IMG/VR virus record: IMGVR_UViG_2799112568_000001
Span: 3,857 to 67,856 of that record
Strand: one strand, 5' to 3'
Source of the DNA: a virus
Taxonomy: Duplodnaviria > Caudoviricetes
DNA length: 64,000 nt
Part shown: in pieces, positions 1 through 10,449 of the stretch
Numbering within the stretch: position 1 is the stretch's first letter
How the letters are laid out: each line of letters opens with the position of its first letter
Program-made: the position numbers and the translations under genes
The notes under the pieces: generated by a model
The model's input: the letters and a program-made list of their open reading frames with translations, nothing else
The model's database searches: none
Told to the model about the DNA's origin: nothing

Positions 1-3000
1 GATAAATTCATCCTTGATATCTTCTTTAAAATCAAAATACCCTAACGCTTCTTGGACAAGGTGTTCTGATTCTGTGCTGTAGAGATACTCGAGCCGTTCT
101 GATTGGCTACCTCGGAAAAACAGGTTTGCGATGTCTTTTAAGGGTTTCGCTATATCCAGGCAAGAGCATATTACTTCCGCTATAGCAAAAGAAAATTTTT
201 GATTGTGTTTCATCAGGTTTAATGAGAAATCATAAGGGACTTTTATATATGCTTTACGCTTTTCGCAAACAATATACTCATAATCATCCAGCCGGACTTG
301 GAATTTACTGTTATATAAAGCTGTTATTTCAGAACACAAGCAAATATTAATTGAAAGCATTTTTCTTGCTTCGTCCCGAATATCTGTTTTGGATGACAAA
401 TCTTTTAATCTATAAATAAAGCATAAGGGGAGAAACTCCTTGAAATCTCGCCCGAATGTTGATGAATCGTTATGAAGAATCGGTTCCCCAACCGGCTCCC
501 CATGAATTCTCAATTCTTTAACACCGAATACTTTTTGAACCTTTGCGACACTTTCTCTTGTATCAAGGCAAATGGTATTAAAATTATTCAAGACCTGTCG
601 GCTGATACCTTTTTCTGCTAAATAGTAGGTTTCTTTAATCGGTTTATATCCATTATTTGTATAAACCATTCCCTGCTCTAAAAAAGCTTTTCTTTCATCA
701 CATTCAATTGTCTTTGAATCAAAGTCTTTCTCAAGCAAACATGAATACAAAGATTTTGCTATTGATGATGATTCTTCAATTTCGCACAAATGCATTAACA
801 CACTGTAGATTTTACTGACAGGCAAATCGTCAAATTCGTTTAATCCTTCTTTAACGCCTAAATCTTTAAAAATTCGTTTGTATTCTTTTCTGACAGTGCT
901 TTTGTTCTCGTCAATGTTTTTTATATAGTCATCTATGTCCGGAGAAACTAAGTGTGGAGCAAGATTACAATTGCTGTTAAGGATTAAACAATCGTCTATA
1001 TTATATCTCTTGTCATCAACTTGTATCCAGGGAACGGTGCAAAACAAATAATAAATATATGAGTATGGTTTCTTTATTTCATCTATTCTTTGAAATCGGC
1101 TGATTTTATTTCCCCAAAGCACATTAACGCTACTGGTTGTTGCTTCGTGCTTTGTTGTTAACATACTCCTTAAAGAATCATCATTCCTAATCCATTCTAT
1201 TATATCTGTGGTTCTGCTGGTTTTTAAGATTTTTTCAAGATTCTCAATTGAAGATCTTTCATATTCGACTTCTGTTATTGCCTTTGAAAAAGCGGAACTT
1301 GTTTTATAAGAATCGTTTCCGATTTTATATGGGTATTTTAGTTCTTCAACCAGTTTACATATAAAATCTCTGTCTTTGCCTCCATACCACCATGAATTAT
1401 GGATGCTGACAGATTCTTTGATTAATCGCGGCAGAGAATCTATACCAAGTTTTTCAAGGAATTCATTTATTAATTCCGTCGGTTGATTCCCAATTATTTC
1501 GTGAATATCGGCGGCAAAGTCAGCTGAGCCGACTTTACCGAGAAGATTGTCACATAAATCATAACCGTATTCTTTGCCTAAATAAAGGGTGCTCGATTTT
1601 TTGTATGTTTTTTTCCTTGTGTAAAACAATATATCAATCGTGGTGCTGTCATCTGATAAGACTATATCTCGATTGTCCCAAAGCCACTTTATAATTTTAT
1701 CCCAGTAAGGCTTGGTCTTTTTTTTGCTACTGATTGTTATGTTTAATAACTCTATTATTTCATCAGAATTGTATTCTTTTATACCTAAAGCATCAAAGTA
1801 TTTAAGTGCTTCATCTTTATCATCAAAAATATTCCGAAGAAGATATTCCCTCATAAATGAGTTAAGAAACTCAACTTTTACAAACTCCGGCAGTTTTGAA
1901 ATACTGAGTCCTTCATCTAAGAAAAAAATCGGTATGCCAAAAGGAATGAGTTCATAATCTTCATTAAAAAAGAATGCCGGCATATCATTTGGGTTGGCGT
2001 TTTTGTTAATGTTCCAAGAAAACTCATCTTTAAATGCTTTTGCTGTTCGAGCTATATGCCTTATTTTTTCTTTATTGCCTTCGATATTATCTGTTTTGAC
2101 ATTTTGTCTCTTAACCCAAGCCTTTACTATTTTGCAGGCATTTTCAAATGAAAATTTATAATCATCTGGGTCTACCGGAAACAAATCATAAATAAAACTG
2201 CTTAAATCTTCTTCTTCCTCAGTATCAAAATCTAAAAGAACTCTGTCAAAATCTTTACCCCTTAAGTATTTAGAAAGACCGGTATTATACCACACAGGCT
2301 GATATGTCATCGGTATATATTTTCCGTTGACATTTGGAAGAATCGGCTTTTTAGTTGCGCTGTCCAAAAGATAATCTTCAAATTTATAATCTTTGGATAA
2401 ATCAACAGGAAGTTTGCTGTCGTTAATAAGCAGTTTGCAAATTTCATAATCAGCACGTTTTTTTTGTGCAATTTTAATAGCAATATCGACCATAAAACCA
2501 GCTGCCGCTTTTAATATGGTTTTATTTGCGTCCGAATCTTTGGCTAAATGGTTTCTGTTTTGATCAAGAGAAAAACTGGCATGCAAAAGAAACGGATATG
2601 GAAATACAACATCCGTTTTAAAATAACTATATAAAAATTGTTCATCTTCATCTATTCCCTGATCACAATAAGCTAAGGAAATAATATATGCCTTTTCTTT
2701 CGGCTTTCCGTTATCATCAGTATCAAGATTGTCTATTGTTGTGCCGGTTTTTGTTCGGACATGCCATTCTTTTTCACTTACAATACAATTATTAACTGTT
2801 TTGGAAAGGACAACGCTATTTTTCTTTTTCTTTTTTGAATAAACAACTGAGTATTCATCCGTGTCAATAGACAATATTTCTGTTCGATTCAGGAAAAGAA
2901 GAATATTTTCATCAAGATTTTTTATCTGATTAATAATCTCTTTGTGTTTCCCTTTTTTAACTTTTAGGGAAATAGTTGTTGTATATTCACTTGCTTTTTT

Positions 3001-3519
3001 TTCACCTATCCATTCGGGAAAAGCTAATGTGGGAGCTTTTTTGTTTTTTACAGGTTCCTTATATTTTGATAATATATCGTTCATTACGGATTTAGCATAA
3101 TCCTCAGAAAAACGAACATGCAAATCTCCGCTGTGAATGGTAATTTCATTTGCCCAGTTTAATACAGATCGGAAGCCGGTCCCTTTGTTGCCGATAACTT
3201 CTTTTTGCCTTTCCCTTTTTGAACTGTTGTTAGAATACATTAAAGATATTATGCCGTCTTCAGTAAAAGGAGAACCATAATTTGAGATTGTTAAAACATC
3301 TTTTTTAAACGATATTTCAACTTTTTTATACTCAGATGATGCCTTTTTATCAATTTCATCATCAGCATTTTGCAACAATTCAAGAATTTCACGTCCGTGA
3401 TATGATTGCCAGTCTTTAGTTTCACGGTCATAGTCAGTTCCGACTTGGGCGTTTTCAGTTAAATAAATCGTCTTTTTATTCTCGTTTTTCTCAAGAATAA
3501 ATTTCTTCATTTTATTCAT
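1..3519 (-). CDS. Large sacsin N-terminal-like GHKL (HSP90-type) ATPase domain protein, >1170 aa, 3' end beyond the window
   Basis: Not in the ORF track; translated by hand at several points in one frame from ATG 3519 (or 3510): MNKMKKFILEKNENKK...GREILELLQNADDE...ISNYGSPFTEDG...IGNKGTGFRSVLNWA...FPYPFLLHASFSLDQNRNHL. The frame is also open at position 1 (LVQEALGYFDFKEDIKDEFI). ExxQNADD and GxKGxGFxSV are sacsin-type GHKL motifs. Confidence 0.8.
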   Translation of the reverse strand, partial: MNKMKKFILEKNENKKTIYLTENAQVGTDYDRETKDWQSYHGREILELLQNADDEIDKKASSEYKKVEISFKKDVLTISNYGSPFTEDGIISLMYSNNSSKRERQKEVIGNKGTGFRSVLNWANEITIHSGDLHVRFSEDYAKSVMNDILSKYKEPVKNKKAPTLAFPEWIGEKKASEYTTTISLKVKKGKHKEIINQIKNLDENILLFLNRTEILSIDTDEYSVVYSKKKKKNSVVLSKTVNNCIVSEKEWHVRTKTGTTIDNLDTDDNGKPKEKAYIISLAYCDQGIDEDEQFLYSYFKTDVVFPYPFLLHASFSLDQNRNHLAKDSDANKTILKAAAGFMVDIAIKIAQKKRADYEICKLLINDSKLPVDLSKDYKFEDYLLDSATKKPILPNVNGKYIPMTYQPVWYNTGLSKYLRGKDFDRVLLDFDTEEEEDLSSFIYDLFPVDPDDYKFSFENACKIVKAWVKRQNVKTDNIEGNKEKIRHIARTAKAFKDEFSWNINKNANPNDMPAFFFNEDYELIPFGIPIFFLDEGLSISKLPEFVKVEFLNSFMREYLLRNIFDDKDEALKYFDALGIKEYNSDEIIELLNITISSKKKTKPYWDKIIKWLWDNRDIVLSDDSTTIDILFYTRKKTYKKSSTLYLGKEYGYDLCDNLLGKVGSADFAADIHEIIGNQPTELINEFLEKLGIDSLPRLIKESVSIHNSWWYGGKDRDFICKLVEELKYPYKIGNDSYKTSSAFSKAITEVEYERSSIENLEKILKTSRTTDIIEWIRNDDSLRSMLTTKHEATTSSVNVLWGNKISRFQRIDEIKKPYSYIYYLFCTVPWIQVDDKRYNIDDCLILNSNCNLAPHLVSPDIDDYIKNIDENKSTVRKEYKRIFKDLGVKEGLNEFDDLPVSKIYSVLMHLCEIEESSSIAKSLYSCLLEKDFDSKTIECDERKAFLEQGMVYTNNGYKPIKETYYLAEKGISRQVLNNFNTICLDTRESVAKVQKVFGVKELRIHGEPVGEPILHNDSSTFGRDFKEFLPLCFIYRLKDLSSKTDIRDEARKMLSINICLCSEITALYNSKFQVRLDDYEYIVCEKRKAYIKVPYDFSLNLMKHNQKFSFAIAEVICSCLDIAKPLKDIANLFFRGSQSERLEYLYSTESEHLVQEALGYFDFKEDIKDEFI

Positions 3520-3602: not shown

Positions 3603-6600
3603 TTACGCCGAAATCCAGCCATAGCCCTGAACTGCCATGTCAATAAAGTGATTCAACAGAAGCATTGCCTTCGAGTTGAACGAAACAATATCATAGCTGT
3701 CGGGTAAATCATGGTCGAGAGAATCTTTGATTTCGCTTTCGATTTTCTTCACCGGCTGTTCATCTCTGTACCAGTCAACAACAAACAGTTCGGCTTTCTT
3801 TTCGGTCAATTTCTTATAAAGATTCTTTGCAGAAAGCTTAACTATCTGCTCTTCTGCCTTCGTGAGCTTTTTGCCGACAATAAGCAAATCGTATAGTTCC
3901 AGCTCTTCCTCGGTCAAGCCCTCGGTCTGAGCTCGGTTATCCTCTTCTTTAAGGTCATTTATGAGCTGAATCAACTGCTCATAGTAATCCTCATTCTCGC
4001 TGCCTCCGGCGTTATAGCGGTCAATAATACCCTTATATCTTTGCGAGAACTGCATTCTGGTAATATTTTTATTTATCATCTGCTCAAGCGCTCTTTCAAG
4101 AAATGCTTTGAGGTCATCAATCTCAATTGCTTTGTATTTTGCCTGGCGTATTTCTTTTCTGAGTTCTTCAGCATCAATGCTTGAAAGATTAATAAACTTA
4201 TCCTGATGAATTACAATTTCCTGCTGGTCTTCGGTTTTTGCCGCTTCAACGCTGTAATCAAGCACCGTCTGCATACGGATACGCGCTTCTTTGACTTTTT
4301 CATCGTCAATGGTATGTTTCAGCAATCCGTGAATATATGCCAAAGGCGCAAATTTGCTGTTATACCAGTTTCTTTCAAATATCTCGGGCTTTGACGCTTC
4401 ATACAGGTTCATCAGTGTATTAAGTAGCACTTTTGCCTGAGTTTTGGTGTCATCATTTGCAACAATGGTGTTATAAACATCCCTGAGCAGATCAAGTCTG
4501 TCAAGGGTGTTTTCCTCTGCAATTATGCTGTCAATATCAATGCCGATTGATTTGAAATAAGAATCTGTTTCTTCTATTGTCGCATCAGTATATGCAATCA
4601 GCTGCGTAACATCTTTTGCAGGGAATTCATCGCTGTCATCACCTGTGGCATACTGCGACAGAGCGGTTTTCATAAATTTAAAAATGTTTACATAGTCAAC
4701 AATGATTCCGCAGGGCTTGTCAGGATATACTCTGTTTGCCCTTGCAATTGCCTGCATAAGGGTATGCCCCTTCATCGGCTTGTCAAGATAAAGGGTTGAA
4801 AGATTAGGCACATCAAAGCCGGTCAGCCACATTGCGCAAACAAAAACCAACTGAAGCGAATCATCCGGGTCTTTGAATCTGTCTTCAATATCCTTGCCTT
4901 CAGGCGTTATTTCATTCATCTTGGCGCGGTGAGATTCAATATCAAGGCCGTATGCCGTGAATTTGTCTTTCTCCTCGGCATCTTCCGATATTATTACTGC
5001 CATTTCTGCCTTGTTCATATAATCGAGAATGTCGGTTAACCTCTTGCGCTCATCAGCATCCGAAGTCTGATTGCGTTCTTTGATTATATCTTGCTTTTCA
5101 ATCGCCCAGTAATGCTGAACTTTGTCATACATTTTAACAGCGGTATATTTATCAACAGATACAACCATGCCTTTTCCCATAAATCCGCGTCTCGGAAAGT
5201 GATGGGCAATATCTCTGGCAATTTTATCAAGGCGGTCTTCGCGCTTGATTACCTCAAGCACTCTTGCCTGTGAGTTTTCAAGCAGACCGATTTCGTCTTC
5301 GTTAAGTTCAAGATCTTCAATAATGCTTTTAACATCATCATCGATAAAATCGTTTGTCAGCCATACTTCAGGAACCCTGCGTGAATAGAACAGCGGAACT
5401 GTTGAACCGTCTTCAATGCTCTGCGCAAAGTTATATTCCGAAACATAGTTGCCAAACCATTGATTTGTAAGGCGTTTTGCTCCGAGAAGCGGAGTTCCGG
5501 TAAACGCTACATAGTTTGCGTTCGGCATTGAGCGGCGCATATTTTCGGCAAGGTCTTTATACTGCGTTCTGTGCGCTTCATCAACAAGAACAAATATGTC
5601 ATCCCTGTCTGTCAACTTCGGGTATTTCTCGCCCTTGTCGGTTCTGAATTTATGTATCAGTGTAAATATGAACGGCTTGTTTGACTGCAGATATTCCCTG
5701 AGTTGCTTCGCGTTTTTTGGCTGGCATTCTTCTTTCGGACCGATTACATCTGTTCTTACAAAGGTCTTGTGAATCTGATTGTCAAGATCTTCTCTGTCTG
5801 TAATAACAACAAATGTGAAGTTACCTGGTATTTTGCGCTTGACTTTGCGGGCAAACATAACCATTGAGAATGATTTGCCGCTGCCCTGTGTGTGCCAGAA
5901 AACGCCGAGCTTGCCTTCGAGTTCTTTTCTGTTTTTGACCGATTCCATAAGATTGTTAACGCCGAGGAACTGATGGTTCTTCGCGATAATCTTTATGCTC
6001 TGATTCTGAAAAATGATGAAGTTCTCAATATAATCAATCAGGCGGTCTCTGCGAAGCAAGCCGTCAATGAAATATTTAACAGAGCTCTCGCCCACATCAT
6101 CGGCATTGCGAATCGCTTTTCTGTTGGGCTTCTCTTTTTCGCTGTCAACCTTCAGCCATTCAAAAAAGTATTCATATTTTGCATTGAATGCGCCGAGCCG
6201 GGTCTCAAGTCCGTTTGACAGCACACAAATCTGATTGAAAGCAAACAGATTCGGTATATCTTTTTTGTAATTAGTCAGGTTGTCATTATATGCGTCGCGG
6301 ACTTTAACAATGCTGTTTTTAAGTTCAATAAACACAAGCGGCATACCGTTTACAAAAATAAGCACGTCGGGTCTGCGCCAATATACTTTGCCCTGAATCC
6401 ACATCTGCGAAACAGCGGTAAAAGTGTTATTCTCGGGGTTTTCAAAGTCAATGAGTTTTACAAAATCAAAATCTTCTTTTCCGTTGCGGCGAACCTTGAT
6501 TTGTATGCTGTTTCTTATCTGATTATAGAGCTTGTAATTGACAGCGGTTATATCCCGACCTGTGAAATCTACGGTCAGGGTTTTAACAACTTCATTCAGT

Positions 6601-6818
6601 TTTTCATCCTCAATACCGGGATTGATTCTTCGCAGAGATTTTTTCAGAACTTCCGGCAGAACACACTGCCTTTTGTTGGTGCGGTATGTTCCGTCATCGG
6701 GATCTTCTCTGTGAACAGGGTCGGGGTCGCAGCGAATGATATCGTAGCAAAACGGTGCGGCTTCAAGTTTTTCAAGTATCGCCTGCTCAATATCGTCTTC
6801 GGATATGAAGTTGCTCAT
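3603..6818 (-). CDS. hsdR: Type I restriction endonuclease subunit R
   Basis: Nuclease motif PDVLIFVNGMPLVFIELK, Walker A HTQGSGKS, DEAH box, SF2 motifs MWLTGFDVP and QAIARANR. Start taken at MSNFISEDD (track start 6842 is an alternative). Confidence 0.96.
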   Translation of the reverse strand: MSNFISEDDIEQAILEKLEAAPFCYDIIRCDPDPVHREDPDDGTYRTNKRQCVLPEVLKKSLRRINPGIEDEKLNEVVKTLTVDFTGRDITAVNYKLYNQIRNSIQIKVRRNGKEDFDFVKLIDFENPENNTFTAVSQMWIQGKVYWRRPDVLIFVNGMPLVFIELKNSIVKVRDAYNDNLTNYKKDIPNLFAFNQICVLSNGLETRLGAFNAKYEYFFEWLKVDSEKEKPNRKAIRNADDVGESSVKYFIDGLLRRDRLIDYIENFIIFQNQSIKIIAKNHQFLGVNNLMESVKNRKELEGKLGVFWHTQGSGKSFSMVMFARKVKRKIPGNFTFVVITDREDLDNQIHKTFVRTDVIGPKEECQPKNAKQLREYLQSNKPFIFTLIHKFRTDKGEKYPKLTDRDDIFVLVDEAHRTQYKDLAENMRRSMPNANYVAFTGTPLLGAKRLTNQWFGNYVSEYNFAQSIEDGSTVPLFYSRRVPEVWLTNDFIDDDVKSIIEDLELNEDEIGLLENSQARVLEVIKREDRLDKIARDIAHHFPRRGFMGKGMVVSVDKYTAVKMYDKVQHYWAIEKQDIIKERNQTSDADERKRLTDILDYMNKAEMAVIISEDAEEKDKFTAYGLDIESHRAKMNEITPEGKDIEDRFKDPDDSLQLVFVCAMWLTGFDVPNLSTLYLDKPMKGHTLMQAIARANRVYPDKPCGIIVDYVNIFKFMKTALSQYATGDDSDEFPAKDVTQLIAYTDATIEETDSYFKSIGIDIDSIIAEENTLDRLDLLRDVYNTIVANDDTKTQAKVLLNTLMNLYEASKPEIFERNWYNSKFAPLAYIHGLLKHTIDDEKVKEARIRMQTVLDYSVEAAKTEDQQEIVIHQDKFINLSSIDAEELRKEIRQAKYKAIEIDDLKAFLERALEQMINKNITRMQFSQRYKGIIDRYNAGGSENEDYYEQLIQLINDLKEEDNRAQTEGLTEEELELYDLLIVGKKLTKAEEQIVKLSAKNLYKKLTEKKAELFVVDWYRDEQPVKKIESEIKDSLDHDLPDSYDIVSFNSKAMLLLNHFIDMAVQGYGWISA

Positions 6819-6838: not shown

Positions 6839-7858
6839 TCAATTTATAAATGAATCAATCAAAGCTATAAATTCATTAATCTCAGAAAAATAATTTGGAT
6901 ATGCTTTCTTTAACATTGAAAACGAAGTGGTTGAAACAAGCACTATATCCTCGTTTGCTTTTCTGGTTTTTTCAGCCCTGTCATATTCAAGTGTTGCCTG
7001 TTCAAGTGCATTCTTTTTAAAAGATTTAATAGACAATTGATTTGTATCTCTATCTAAAATCAACACATAATATCCTTGATCAAGTGTTTCAGAACTATCT
7101 ACATAACCTACAGCTTCTTTAATACTTTTTAACTTTCTTAAAACCTCATATTTTTCCTCATATTTAATAAACTCTTGTATAATACTCGACCGTTTAACAG
7201 CTTCAACTTTTTGACCGTTAGTTTCATATATTTCTAATAACTTTGAAACCGAGATAAAAAACTGTCTGTTATATGGATCGCCTTGACCTATCTTTAATGG
7301 ATCTCCGGTAAAAGTATCCATTGTTTCAACTGCAGTTGCCCATAAGTGTTGTACATGTGTGCGGATTTGTATCTCAATAAATAGACCGTTATATTTTGGA
7401 TTTCGGTCACTGTTGTATGAATAAACAATATGATAGCTTCTGTACCCATCATCCTTTGGAGTTTTTATGTAGTCATATTCTTCCTTCAGTTTGTGTCGCA
7501 TTCTCGATTTCTTTAAAGACTCAACCATATTGTAGACTTCATCAGTAGTATTGAAAATAACTCTGCACCCACCAATGTCTTGCATGGTAGTTAAACTCAT
7601 ATTAGGGAATCTATATAGTTTTTGCGTAATTGAATACAAACGTTTTAATCTTTGGGCTACAACAGCATCCTCACCCGCTGTTTTCTTGACATGCATATAG
7701 ATTATTTGCAAAGGAAAAGCGTGGGCTGCACGCCAATTATTAATTAGAGTAAGCGCATAATCTTTTTCAGACTTTGAAGATTCATCTGAAACAAACACTT
7801 TCCCCGCTTTTTTTATTTGTGTTTTGGGAAATCTTATTTCTTCATAATTGTGAGACAT
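6839..7858 (-). CDS. capRel: RelA/SpoT synthetase-domain protein with C-terminal YXXY motif; CapRel-like fused toxin-antitoxin
   Basis: Intact SYNTH motifs QRLKRLYS, MQDIGGCR, GYRSYH, EIQIRT; no hydrolase domain. A C-terminal extension of ~130 aa ends KAYPNYF (Y320-P-N-Y323, nt 6890-6901), matching the YXXY switch described for CapRel. RelA/SpoT call is firm; CapRel assignment is motif-based. Confidence 0.72.
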   Translation of the reverse strand: MSHNYEEIRFPKTQIKKAGKVFVSDESSKSEKDYALTLINNWRAAHAFPLQIIYMHVKKTAGEDAVVAQRLKRLYSITQKLYRFPNMSLTTMQDIGGCRVIFNTTDEVYNMVESLKKSRMRHKLKEEYDYIKTPKDDGYRSYHIVYSYNSDRNPKYNGLFIEIQIRTHVQHLWATAVETMDTFTGDPLKIGQGDPYNRQFFISVSKLLEIYETNGQKVEAVKRSSIIQEFIKYEEKYEVLRKLKSIKEAVGYVDSSETLDQGYYVLILDRDTNQLSIKSFKKNALEQATLEYDRAEKTRKANEDIVLVSTTSFSMLKKAYPNYFSEINEFIALIDSFIN

Positions 7859-9023
7859 TTTTTACCTCCAGTTTACCACTCATCAGGCGCGGCAAAAGTA
7901 AATCTCGTTGTTTTGTTAAGTCCATATTTATTTTATATAGTGTGTTTTTTTGAATCATTATATTCCTAAGAATATCATTTGCTTTTTTCATAGTGTTATC
8001 ATCAGCAACTAAAACCATTATTTTTTTCAAGTGTCTGTCTCCAAGGTGGCTTACGGTAGTCCCAGATAATGTCTGTTCCCAAAACTTAATTTGAGAATAA
8101 ATTGAAAGATAGAGCCAATAATTGCAAACTTTGACACTCTTACTATCTAATTCAACTACTCGTTGATTTAAAAAGGCCCTTTTTCCACTCCATAAACACA
8201 TATGGAATATTCCATCCATACCTATTAGAATCGCATTTTCTTTTATTAAATACTTATCATCACATAACTCAGGGGTAAAAGTTTTTGTATCGTTTTTAGG
8301 GATGTCTCTTATTCTGACAACAGCATTGAGAGTTTCATCATCTGTGAATGCGTCTGAAGAAAATGAGTATCCATAAGTAACATTAGCAACATCAAAAAGA
8401 TTTGAATACTCCCATCCCTTTGGAATTCCATTCTCAAACTCTGCCGATTCATACCCGGGAAAGCGGAAACGGACAAACCACTCCTTATACATTTCTTCGG
8501 CCATCTGCTCAAGAACCTTAATGCGTTTGTTGTTGATCTCGATAAGTGAATCATAGTTTGAAAGAACAGAAACAATGCTCTTTTGGTATTCTATAGCCGG
8601 AAAATCCCATTTGATTTTTTTTATAAAACCAAGGTCGGCACGCTGTCTGCCGCTTGCACCAGTCATACTGTTAGCGGCAAGTTGCCTCATATGTTTCATT
8701 CTAAGCAGATAGTAAATATAATCAGTGTCCGTAACTCCATCTATGCCACGAAAAACAAACAGTTCAGTTGAGCCAAATCCTTTTTTGCCATTGGTTTTTG
8801 CTACTGCCATCTTTCCATTTTCAAGGCAGGGGGTTATACGAGCAAACAAAACATCATTATCTTCAAATTTTGCTCCACTCTGACCGGTGTATTCAATTTC
8901 TTCATCACTTTTAACAGGTTTAAATCCCGGATTGATCTTATCAATATCAACCAAAGGGTATTTTTCACCTTTTATAAGTTTAACAGAAGGATTACAGTTT
9001 ACTTTTTCGCCAAATCTATCCAT
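7842..9023 (-). CDS. hsdS: Type I RM specificity subunit
   Basis: Two TRDs (FARITPCLENGK...GSTEL; VVRIRDI...LNQRV) separated and followed by helical conserved regions (YQKSIVSVLSNYDSLIE...WFVRFRFPG; RDLLLPRLMSGKLEV); sits between hsdM and hsdR. Confidence 0.95.
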   Translation of the reverse strand: MDRFGEKVNCNPSVKLIKGEKYPLVDIDKINPGFKPVKSDEEIEYTGQSGAKFEDNDVLFARITPCLENGKMAVAKTNGKKGFGSTELFVFRGIDGVTDTDYIYYLLRMKHMRQLAANSMTGASGRQRADLGFIKKIKWDFPAIEYQKSIVSVLSNYDSLIEINNKRIKVLEQMAEEMYKEWFVRFRFPGYESAEFENGIPKGWEYSNLFDVANVTYGYSFSSDAFTDDETLNAVVRIRDIPKNDTKTFTPELCDDKYLIKENAILIGMDGIFHMCLWSGKRAFLNQRVVELDSKSVKVCNYWLYLSIYSQIKFWEQTLSGTTVSHLGDRHLKKIMVLVADDNTMKKANDILRNIMIQKNTLYKINMDLTKQRDLLLPRLMSGKLEVKNVSQL

Positions 9024-9026
9024 AGA

Positions 9027-10220
9027 TTACTCACCAAACAAAGCTTTTAAATTTTTGCCAATCTGGGTTTCAAGTTCTTTTGCTTCTGCATTCAACGCTT
9101 CATATTCTGTGTTCAACCCAAGCATGGTTTCTTTGAACGCTTCTGCTGTCATTCCGTCATCTTCAATAACAACGCCTACATAACGGCCTGCATTCAGCGA
9201 ATAATCCTGATCGGCAATGCTGTCTTCCTCTATAATTTCAATCGGATTACCGTCTTTATCAAGTTTAGGTTCACCGTTTTCATCAAGCTCATAAGAGATG
9301 CCGAGAGTAGCGACTTTGCATAAACCGATTACATCACGGTATTTGCCGTCAGGGAAACGCTCGGTGAGCCAGTTAATCTGCGCCTGCCAGTATGATTTGG
9401 TTTTAACTTCTTTATCATCTGATTCTTCGGGTGCTTCCGACATAGCGGCTTTATACTCTTCAATCAGCGCTTTGAGCGCTCCGGAGTCGCCTTTGTAAAG
9501 ACGGGTAATAATACCGAGATTTTTAATCTGCTCGTCGCTGAATTTGCGGTGCGCTCTGTCAACCTGTGTGAACACATTTCTCGCGTCAATAAAGAGTATT
9601 TCATCGTTTTTGTCGGTATGGGGCTTTTGTTTATCAAAGAACCAGAGTGTCGCAGGCAGTGTTACGGTTGAAAACATATTTGAGGGCAGAGTAACCATCT
9701 GACTGATGATTCCTTCTTCGATCATCTTCTTGCGGATTTCATATTCACTCTTGCCCGCGTCGGAAGCGGAGTTTGCCATAACGAGCGCGGCTCTGCCGTT
9801 TTCATTCAGGGCAGTTGCAAAATAGCCTATCCACAGATAGTTGGCGTTCGGCACGGTTTCTTTTTTATCCGACTTTTTCTTTGATGAATTAGAAGAATTT
9901 CTCGGCACACCGTATGTGTTGAATCTGGCATCATCAATAACCCTGTCAAATGTTACTTCATCCACATTGAACGGCGGATTTGCCATTACGTAGTCAAATG
10001 CGCCGACAGCATTATATGGGTCTGCATAAAATGAGTTTGCCTCGGTTATTTCGCCGCGGACATTATTGAGAAGAAGATTCATTTTGGCAAGTTTTACTGT
10101 ATCGGGTTCTTTTTCAACACCGTAGCAGCGGAAGCTCATCTGCTCCGCTTCACTGGCATTATGATTGTGCATATATCTTGCAGACTGAACAAACATACCG
10201 CCCGAACCGCAGGCGGGGTC
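9027..10220 (-). pseudogene. hsdM: 3' fragment (~397 codons) of type I RM methyltransferase, interrupted by the prophage at motif I
   Basis: Begins abruptly at DPACGSGGMF (motif I) and contains ANPPFN (motif IV). The upstream 34 codons of track ORF 9027..10322 are att-arm and terminator DNA, not an HsdM N-terminal domain. Confidence 0.88.
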
Positions 10221-10245
10221 TATAAAGACGCTATCTTTGATACAA
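10219..10245. other. Left attachment junction: TC core plus phage arm TATAAAGACGCTATCTTTGATACAA
   Basis: The arm matches the reverse complement of 63972-63996 at 18/25 positions (TATAAA....TTGATACAA). The core coincides with the hsdM break point. Confidence 0.85.
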
Positions 10246-10293
10246 ACAGAAAAAGCCTTCTCCGACACATAAGTGCCGAAAAAGGCGTAAAAT

Positions 10294-10344
10294 AAGGGCC
10301 TTTGAGGTTCCACTGTGTTCAACAGTAGAGCTTCAAAGGCCCTT
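10294..10344. terminator. Long bidirectional intrinsic terminator at the end of the left cargo operon
   Basis: 23-bp imperfect stem AAGGGCCTTTGAGGTTCCACTGT / ACAGTAGAGCTTCAAAGGCCCTT, 5-nt loop, T-rich tracts on both sides. Confidence 0.75.
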
Positions 10345-10449
10345 TTTTGTTTTGTCCGCTATTCTGTTGTTGTCGACCTCTGTGTAGAAGTTACCCTCCA
10401 CAAAAGGCGCTGCAAGGAATAATTAAAAAGTGTGGAATAATTAAAAGGT

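Follow-up and report, generated by a model that had tools for sequence, protein, structure and literature searches.

The window analysed here, a stretch of 64,000 nucleotides, carries on its minus strand the genes of a type I restriction-modification operon in the order hsdM remnant, hsdS, capRel, hsdR and tmtA (Tiamat); all features of this operon described below lie on that strand. The capRel gene is the open reading frame at 6839-7858, which starts with ATG and encodes a fused toxSAS toxin-antitoxin protein of 339 aa (P0001), identified by the reading frame itself, its match to CapRelSJ46, PADLOC and an AlphaFold2 model. The preceding gene hsdS (7842-9023, 393 aa; Pfam Methylase_S, PADLOC Specificity_I) ends at position 7842 and therefore overlaps capRel, which begins at 7858, by 17 nt. 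A ribosome-binding site of capRel (GGAGG, 7865-7869) was read within the 3' end of hsdS, 6 nt ahead of the capRel ATG. The stop codon of capRel occupies positions 6841-6839. The likely start codon of hsdR is the ATG at 6818, which has a GGAG 8 nt upstream and leaves a gap of 20 nt to capRel, and the TTG at 6842 given in the list of open reading frames is probably not the true start. When read from this ATG, hsdR (3603-6818) encodes a protein of 1071 aa, in agreement with an intact allele from another metagenome, and contains the Pfam domains HSDR_N, SWI2_SNF2, T1R_D3 and T1RH-like_C (TIGR00348, E 3.5e-152). The tmtA gene (1-3519; PADLOC TmtA, E 1.6e-210) extends beyond the left end of the window and belongs to a frame of 1560 aa on the contig. 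To the left of the window, tmtA is followed by a TnsA-like gene of 331 aa, an order that is the same in the intact allele, and the whole tmtA/TnsA-like block has a GC content of about 33% compared to 49% for the genome. The fractional GC content is 0.325 for capRel, 0.355 for hsdS, 0.420 for hsdR and 0.442 for the hsdM remnant, with 0.492 for the genome. The 17-nt overlap with hsdS and the lower GC content of capRel relative to hsdR had both been reported in a first-pass annotation of this DNA, and our values agree with it.

The source genome is a metagenome-assembled genome (MAG) of 2.1 Mb in 320 contigs, and the window reaches the end of its contig. The left 20 kb of the window show 32-44% GC versus 49% in the genome. 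The phage core, located at about 21-60 kb, has 53% GC and contains an HK97-type capsid gene and two large serine recombinases. The two recombinase genes (590 and 523 aa) adjoin each other at the right end of the phage core (57034-60362) and are followed by a small open reading frame and then by genes for a Crp-like protein, a ferredoxin and a hybrid-cluster protein (hcp). CapRel was not found in 18 genomes of the same genus and 12 further genomes of the same order, and because of its absence from these 30 relatives we consider the gene accessory.

A Pfam scan of the full CapRel protein yielded a RelA_SpoT synthetase domain (residues 69-175, E 7e-23) as the sole domain and no HD hydrolase domain. 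Based on this match and on the alignment to CapRelSJ46, the toxSYNTH catalytic core was placed at about residues 60-190 (7289-7681), including R70, R99 and the G-loop residue Y139. In an alignment of 49 homologues, 13 synthetase residues were invariant (R70, K72, S76, K80, D94, G96, G97, R99, Y139, H143, E162, Q164, and R166). The catalytic core is followed by anchor helices and a pseudo-zinc-finger-like sensor/antitoxin region at about residues 195-311 (6926-7276, borders approximate), which aligns with the C-terminal half of CapRelSJ46 and in the AlphaFold2 model shows a three-strand sheet and a helix. Close to the C-terminus lies the motif YPNYF (Y320-F324, 6887-6901), the equivalent of Y352-F356 of CapRelSJ46. 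It represents the YXXY motif whose role in the autoinhibition of CapRel has been described previously (PMC9712102). Residues A319-Y320-P321-N322-Y323-F324 are identical to AYPNYF of CapRelSJ46 and were invariant in the 49 homologues. PADLOC assigned the protein over its full length to the candidate family PDC-S33 (E 9e-115).

The closest full-length relative is CapRelSJ46 of Salmonella phage SJ46 (PMC9712102, PMC11578894), a single chain composed of toxSYNTH and a pseudo-zinc-finger domain (pseudo-ZFD) like the protein studied here. Residues 7-334 of CapRel align with residues 12-366 of CapRelSJ46 (PDB 7ZTB, 9ERV) with an E-value of 5.7e-42. According to the published numbering (PMC9712102), A77, R79, R116, and Y155 of CapRelSJ46 correspond to A68, R70, R99, and Y139, and V338, L339, A351, Y352, and Y355 to V306, L307, A319, Y320, and Y323. 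All of these positions were invariant in the alignment of 49 homologues. The equivalents of R79, R116, Y155, V338, L339, and A351 are thus kept and the string LKKAYPNYF is the same in both proteins, whereas the equivalent of A341 is a serine. The two proteins differ further in that they share 31-36% identity and in that CapRel of the window is 34 residues shorter, mainly because loops ahead of the catalytic core and within the C-terminal domain are missing. They also differ in their genomic context, as CapRelSJ46 lies on a P1-like plasmid prophage and the present protein is encoded by a gut Clostridia MAG, within a type I restriction operon.

The AlphaFold2 model, which was built on the alignment of the 49 homologues, reached a pLDDT of 87.3 and a pTM of 0.83, and its top fold matches were 7ZTB and 9ERV (Foldseek, E 1e-21). 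VIA-align superimposed residues 7-339 of the model on residues 12-371 of chain 7ZTB_B with a Z-score of 25.8 and an rmsd of 3.0 over 271 residues. Compared to the open crystal form, a rigid fit gave an rmsd of 10 and a trimmed fit an rmsd of 3.0, which may hint at a closed state of the model with the YXXY turn placed between the two arginines. With the alignment extending to residue 334 of 339 and the fold match, the C-terminal pseudo-ZFD antitoxin fused in cis, together with its anchor helices, is present. The first-pass annotation had read the gene from its letters as a CapRel-like fused toxSAS with intact synthetase motifs, no hydrolase and a C-terminal YPNY, and the homology search, the alignment and the structure prediction bear this out. 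The gene is an intact member of the CapRel family in terms of family assignment, motifs and fold.

In contrast to hsdS and hsdR, which are intact, the hsdM gene of the window is truncated, and no full-length HsdM with an HsdM_N domain is present to complete the type I system. The remnant (9027-10235), recognized by its N6_Mtase domain and its homology to locus L103, comprises the C-terminal two thirds of the protein from motif I (DPACGSGG) onwards and lacks HsdM_N. Compared to the intact HsdM of L103 (579 aa), the closest related operon, homology begins at residue 201, corresponding to position 10235 of the window, and at the DNA level at about position 10220. Directly upstream of this breakpoint, two hairpins with T-runs were read (10255-10348), consisting of a terminator-like site (10286-10255) and a 27-nt inverted repeat (10290-10348), and unrelated genes are also located upstream of it. 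The missing 5' part of hsdM was not found anywhere in the 320-contig assembly, in which the only HsdM_N belongs to an unrelated, about 25% identical HsdM on another contig (C65). A simple prophage insertion splitting hsdM, with both junctions in the window, was considered and is unproven, as the right end of the phage core is not joined to the 5' part of hsdM. No usable synteny for the split was found in relatives.

An intact version of the operon exists elsewhere. A metagenome contig of 15 kb encodes a 100% identical CapRel within the complete order hsdM-hsdS-capRel-hsdR-tmtA, with 602, 393, and 1071 aa for HsdM, HsdS, and HsdR, respectively, and the truncation of hsdM is therefore specific to the source genome. 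The first-pass annotation had proposed a layered defence unit made of the restriction system and the toxSAS. With hsdM cut at about codon 200 and hairpins upstream of the cut, this unit is probably disabled in the source genome, although the allele with the same CapRel is intact.

This raises the question whether capRel itself is a silent passenger here, i.e., whether the operon was decapitated by adjoining mobile DNA, leaving hsdS-capRel-hsdR untranscribed and the cassette heading to decay. The loss of the hsdM 5' part from the assembly and the two T-run hairpins directly ahead of the remnant point in this direction. A search for an internal capRel promoter yielded 21 promoter-like matches in the region compared to 18.0 (SD 4.3) in shuffled sequences, which are no commoner than expected from the shuffles, but the sigma-70 consensus used is poorly suited to Clostridia, the group of the source genome, and one site within the hsdM remnant (10090-10062) matches 10 of 12 consensus positions. 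Moreover, the reading frames of capRel, hsdS, and hsdR have remained open over their full length, and the 100% identity of CapRel to the copy in the intact operon implies that the event was recent or that the gene is still under selection. Silencing in this particular genome is therefore a tentative reading, which we take seriously without favouring it.

To see whether the location of capRel in a type I operon is conserved, we analyzed the best 80 species-level CapRel loci from GTDB genomes and calculated a tree. Type I genes were marked by profiles built and iterated on the sampled loci, which may miss very divergent type I genes; one hsdS (L051) was in fact found by Pfam only, and its locus, scored as near a type I operon, has the arrangement hsdS-capRel. 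Within this sample of 80, all restriction-linked copies belonged to a single clade of 43 rows (SH-aLRT 99), mostly from gut and rumen Bacillota. In this clade, capRel was located directly in a type I operon at 18 loci and near one at three, whereas 13 loci with at least 3 kb of flanking sequence on both sides showed no type I genes in these flanks and nine were on contigs too short to judge. The gene is hence found in type I operons at 18 of 34 informative clade loci, and the accompanying HsdR proteins represent five or more divergent lineages. Among the informative rows that fall outside the clade, including the loci from other phyla, none in this sample was restriction-linked. Along the tree, the linkage label must have changed at least 6-9 times, and none of 500 shuffles gave as few as nine. 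Ten close neighbours that were inspected showed mixed contexts, including the one missed HsdS. The close homologues with 61-79% identity, which derive from independent assemblies, are all located directly before hsdR in type I operons, and the order hsdM-hsdS-capRel-hsdR recurs in related operons, whereas a homologue with 53% identity adjoins a prophage recombinase instead of hsdR. The placement of capRel in type I operons is not a one-off.

The proteins encoded next to CapRel do not diverge in step with it. At four loci, identity to the window is 74-78% for CapRel and 73-74% for HsdR, but at locus L010 a CapRel with 71% identity is accompanied by an HsdR with 36% and an HsdM with 37% identity, and at L013 the CapRel value is 61% against 36%. 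Further partners go down to 21-30% identity and differ in architecture, the partner HsdM proteins range from 475 to 816 aa, the partner HsdR of L096 is of the EcoEI_R_C/DUF4145 type, and at L039 the gene order is R-M-S-capRel. DNA homology between the window and L010 is confined to positions 7865-6810, starting at the ribosome-binding site of capRel and ending eight bases within hsdR. As this homology ends at the gene edges and lies beside an HsdR of 36% identity, capRel moves as a cassette whose borders can be read directly from the DNA.

Other genes occupy the same operons in a comparable manner. At L020 (11021-13030), a two-gene insert is present between capRel and hsdR, encoding a 282-aa protein without known family and a 350-aa protein with a PIN_12 domain. 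A duplicated stretch of about 40 nt, MRNFISEDDIEQA, corresponding to the first 13 hsdR codons, brackets the insert and suggests that cassettes enter via recombination at the start of hsdR. Five small genes without Pfam or PADLOC match are located in the hsdS-capRel interval of L013 (4207-6853), and a single gene for a 275-aa protein, likewise without match in either collection, in the hsdM-hsdS interval of L007 (5986-6813). Searches of the other cargo of the slot with Pfam and PADLOC thus gave mostly no match and one PIN domain. Given the two-gene insert of L020 and the five small genes of L013, which share the slot, the start of hsdR acts as a landing site at which different cargo genes can replace each other, capRel being one of them. 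Abortive-type toxins nested in restriction-modification operons have long been described (PMC3710099; PMC3874165), including the Abi, HEPN, and Fic genes (Anantharaman et al., 2013; PMC3710099), which capRel resembles as interchangeable cargo of the abortive type, and the Campylobacter rlo genes (cited in PMC10440598), which are also nested as abortive-type cargo. In the open-access literature, we found no report that links CapRel or toxSAS to type I operons or that names CapRel as cargo of restriction-modification systems.

A search for longer CapRel relatives revealed proteins in which a complete CapRel is fused to a type II nuclease. In these fusions (P0123, P0262, P0263, P0269, and P0271; L107:6001-7926 and L108-L111:5001-6932), RelA_SpoT covers residues 74-187 and is followed by a complete DpnII nuclease (residues 360-638), while AYPNYF and the last helix of CapRel are retained. 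The variants of 641-643 aa are each represented by 2-6 contigs and were assembled independently from at least four metagenome samples, always in one and the same chromosomal context between dpnM and a second methylase gene. The CapRel-DpnII fusion is real and represents a single lineage. We also considered a CapRel-DUF4145-HsdR frame of 1483 aa (L096:1754-6205) as a possible Rosetta stone. Since it has a single member on a single contig and its nearest relatives are plain HsdR proteins of 1123-1125 aa, it probably arose through loss of a stop codon or an error in assembly and was not used as evidence. Additional CapRel-like proteins of 597-1022 aa (P0121, P0122, and P0124-P0137) carry a Beta_protein domain (PF14350), DUF2779, or unannotated C-terminal domains of about 260 aa.

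The position of capRel next to restriction genes invites comparison with toxins that guard restriction. In EcoprrI, the order is hsdM-hsdS-prrC-hsdR (PMC3874165), and the first-pass annotation had rightly pointed out that capRel and prrC occupy the same position between hsdS and hsdR. PrrC is a translation-targeting suicide enzyme, as CapRel is predicted to be. In the Ronin system, RonA and HsdMS likewise represent a toxic effector that is genetically tied to type I genes in a layered defence, and together with EcoR22I Ronin provides a precedent (bioRxiv 10.1101/2023.04.06.535777). By analogy, CapRel could be tied to HsdR or HsdMS and fire when a phage anti-restriction protein disables restriction, forming a single restriction-plus-suicide machine. 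This would agree with the tight coupling to both neighbours, with the frequent location in type I operons, and with the independently assembled DpnII fusions, whereas the read-through into HsdR is a singleton. Nevertheless, we consider it unlikely. PrrC is an ABC-ATPase/HEPN anticodon nuclease without an antitoxin of its own, which is kept latent by the restriction complex and freed by the T4 Stp peptide, whereas CapRel carries its own antitoxin in cis and an intact YXXY switch, both complete, which makes an external keeper unnecessary. RonA is a membrane peptide of 61 aa that is neutralised by HsdMS, whereas nothing indicates that CapRel depends on HsdMS. Furthermore, in the clade of proteins with at least 60% identity, the catalytic part is conserved at 0.76, and the anchors and the pseudo-ZFD, with 0.54-0.58, are the most variable part. 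Such a fast-varying sensor fits changing phage proteins better than a host partner, and a variable sensor tracking phage proteins is the pattern described for CapRel (PMC9712102). The missing co-divergence with HsdR, the unrelated cargo in the same slot, and the loci without any type I gene nearby, comprising the 13 in the clade and all sampled ones from other phyla, also argue against a guard. The idea of the first-pass annotation that CapRel may sense inhibition of restriction in addition to capsid thus found no support. It is likewise improbable that the CapRel cassettes of gut Firmicutes have become adapted to restriction-nuclease genes and work together with the nuclease, either by firing on blocked restriction or by making the loss of the R gene costly, although the recurrent placement beside nuclease genes and the one DpnII fusion leave room for a functional link beyond mere linkage.

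Less likely still is that the protein synthesizes a toxic alarmone, either (pp)pApp or (p)ppGpp, as FaRel or Pag1B/GRel do, in place of modifying tRNA. The toxSYNTH fold is shared with the small alarmone synthetases RelQ and RelP (VIA-align, Z about 15), and toxSAS families differ in substrate (PMC11782079). However, these synthetases match the catalytic half of the model only, CapRelSJ46, a tRNA pyrophosphokinase, is the closest relative over the full length and scores much higher than any alarmone synthetase, and the domain layout and the YXXY switch are of the CapRel type.

We therefore favour the interpretation that the gene encodes a self-contained CapRel defence protein which adds a second, independent layer to the type I operon that carries it and is not a subunit or guard of the restriction enzyme, and we assign it a probability of nearly 80%. 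The protein adds a well-preserved and ordinary CapRel to an established family, and the kind of slot that its gene occupies is likewise known. From the 31-36% identical homologue we infer its toxicity and how it would be autoinhibited, triggered, and directed to tRNA. Following the mechanism of the family (PMC9712102, PMC11578894), the C-terminal pseudo-zinc-finger domain of the protein would keep the N-terminal toxSYNTH inactive, and the YPNYF turn would insert between R70 and R99 and thereby block the ATP site. As for CapRelSJ46, a phage protein, either the major capsid protein or another abundant one, would bind the variable C-terminal domain and open the enzyme. The opened CapRel would then pyrophosphorylate the 3' ends of tRNAs, causing a halt of translation and abortion of the infection. 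The cassette, extending from the ribosome-binding site to the first hsdR codons, has established itself immediately ahead of hsdR in type I operons, where capRel would be transcribed and transferred together with the restriction genes, its translation probably being coupled to theirs. In the source genome, the first 200 codons of hsdM have been lost and the promoter of the operon with them, so that restriction is probably off and expression of capRel uncertain.

One defence gene is thus found repeatedly just before the nuclease gene of type I systems that are unrelated to each other. It moves as a cassette with exact borders and in one lineage is fused to a type II nuclease. With this pattern, cargo that is simply linked to restriction can be cleanly distinguished from cargo that is wired into it; if the cassettes were adapted to the nuclease genes, CapRel would be a guard of restriction and not a capsid sensor only. 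The start of hsdR emerges as a recognisable docking place for abortive-infection cargo, and the CapRel described here provides a Gram-positive gut representative for studies of the trigger outside the enterobacteria.
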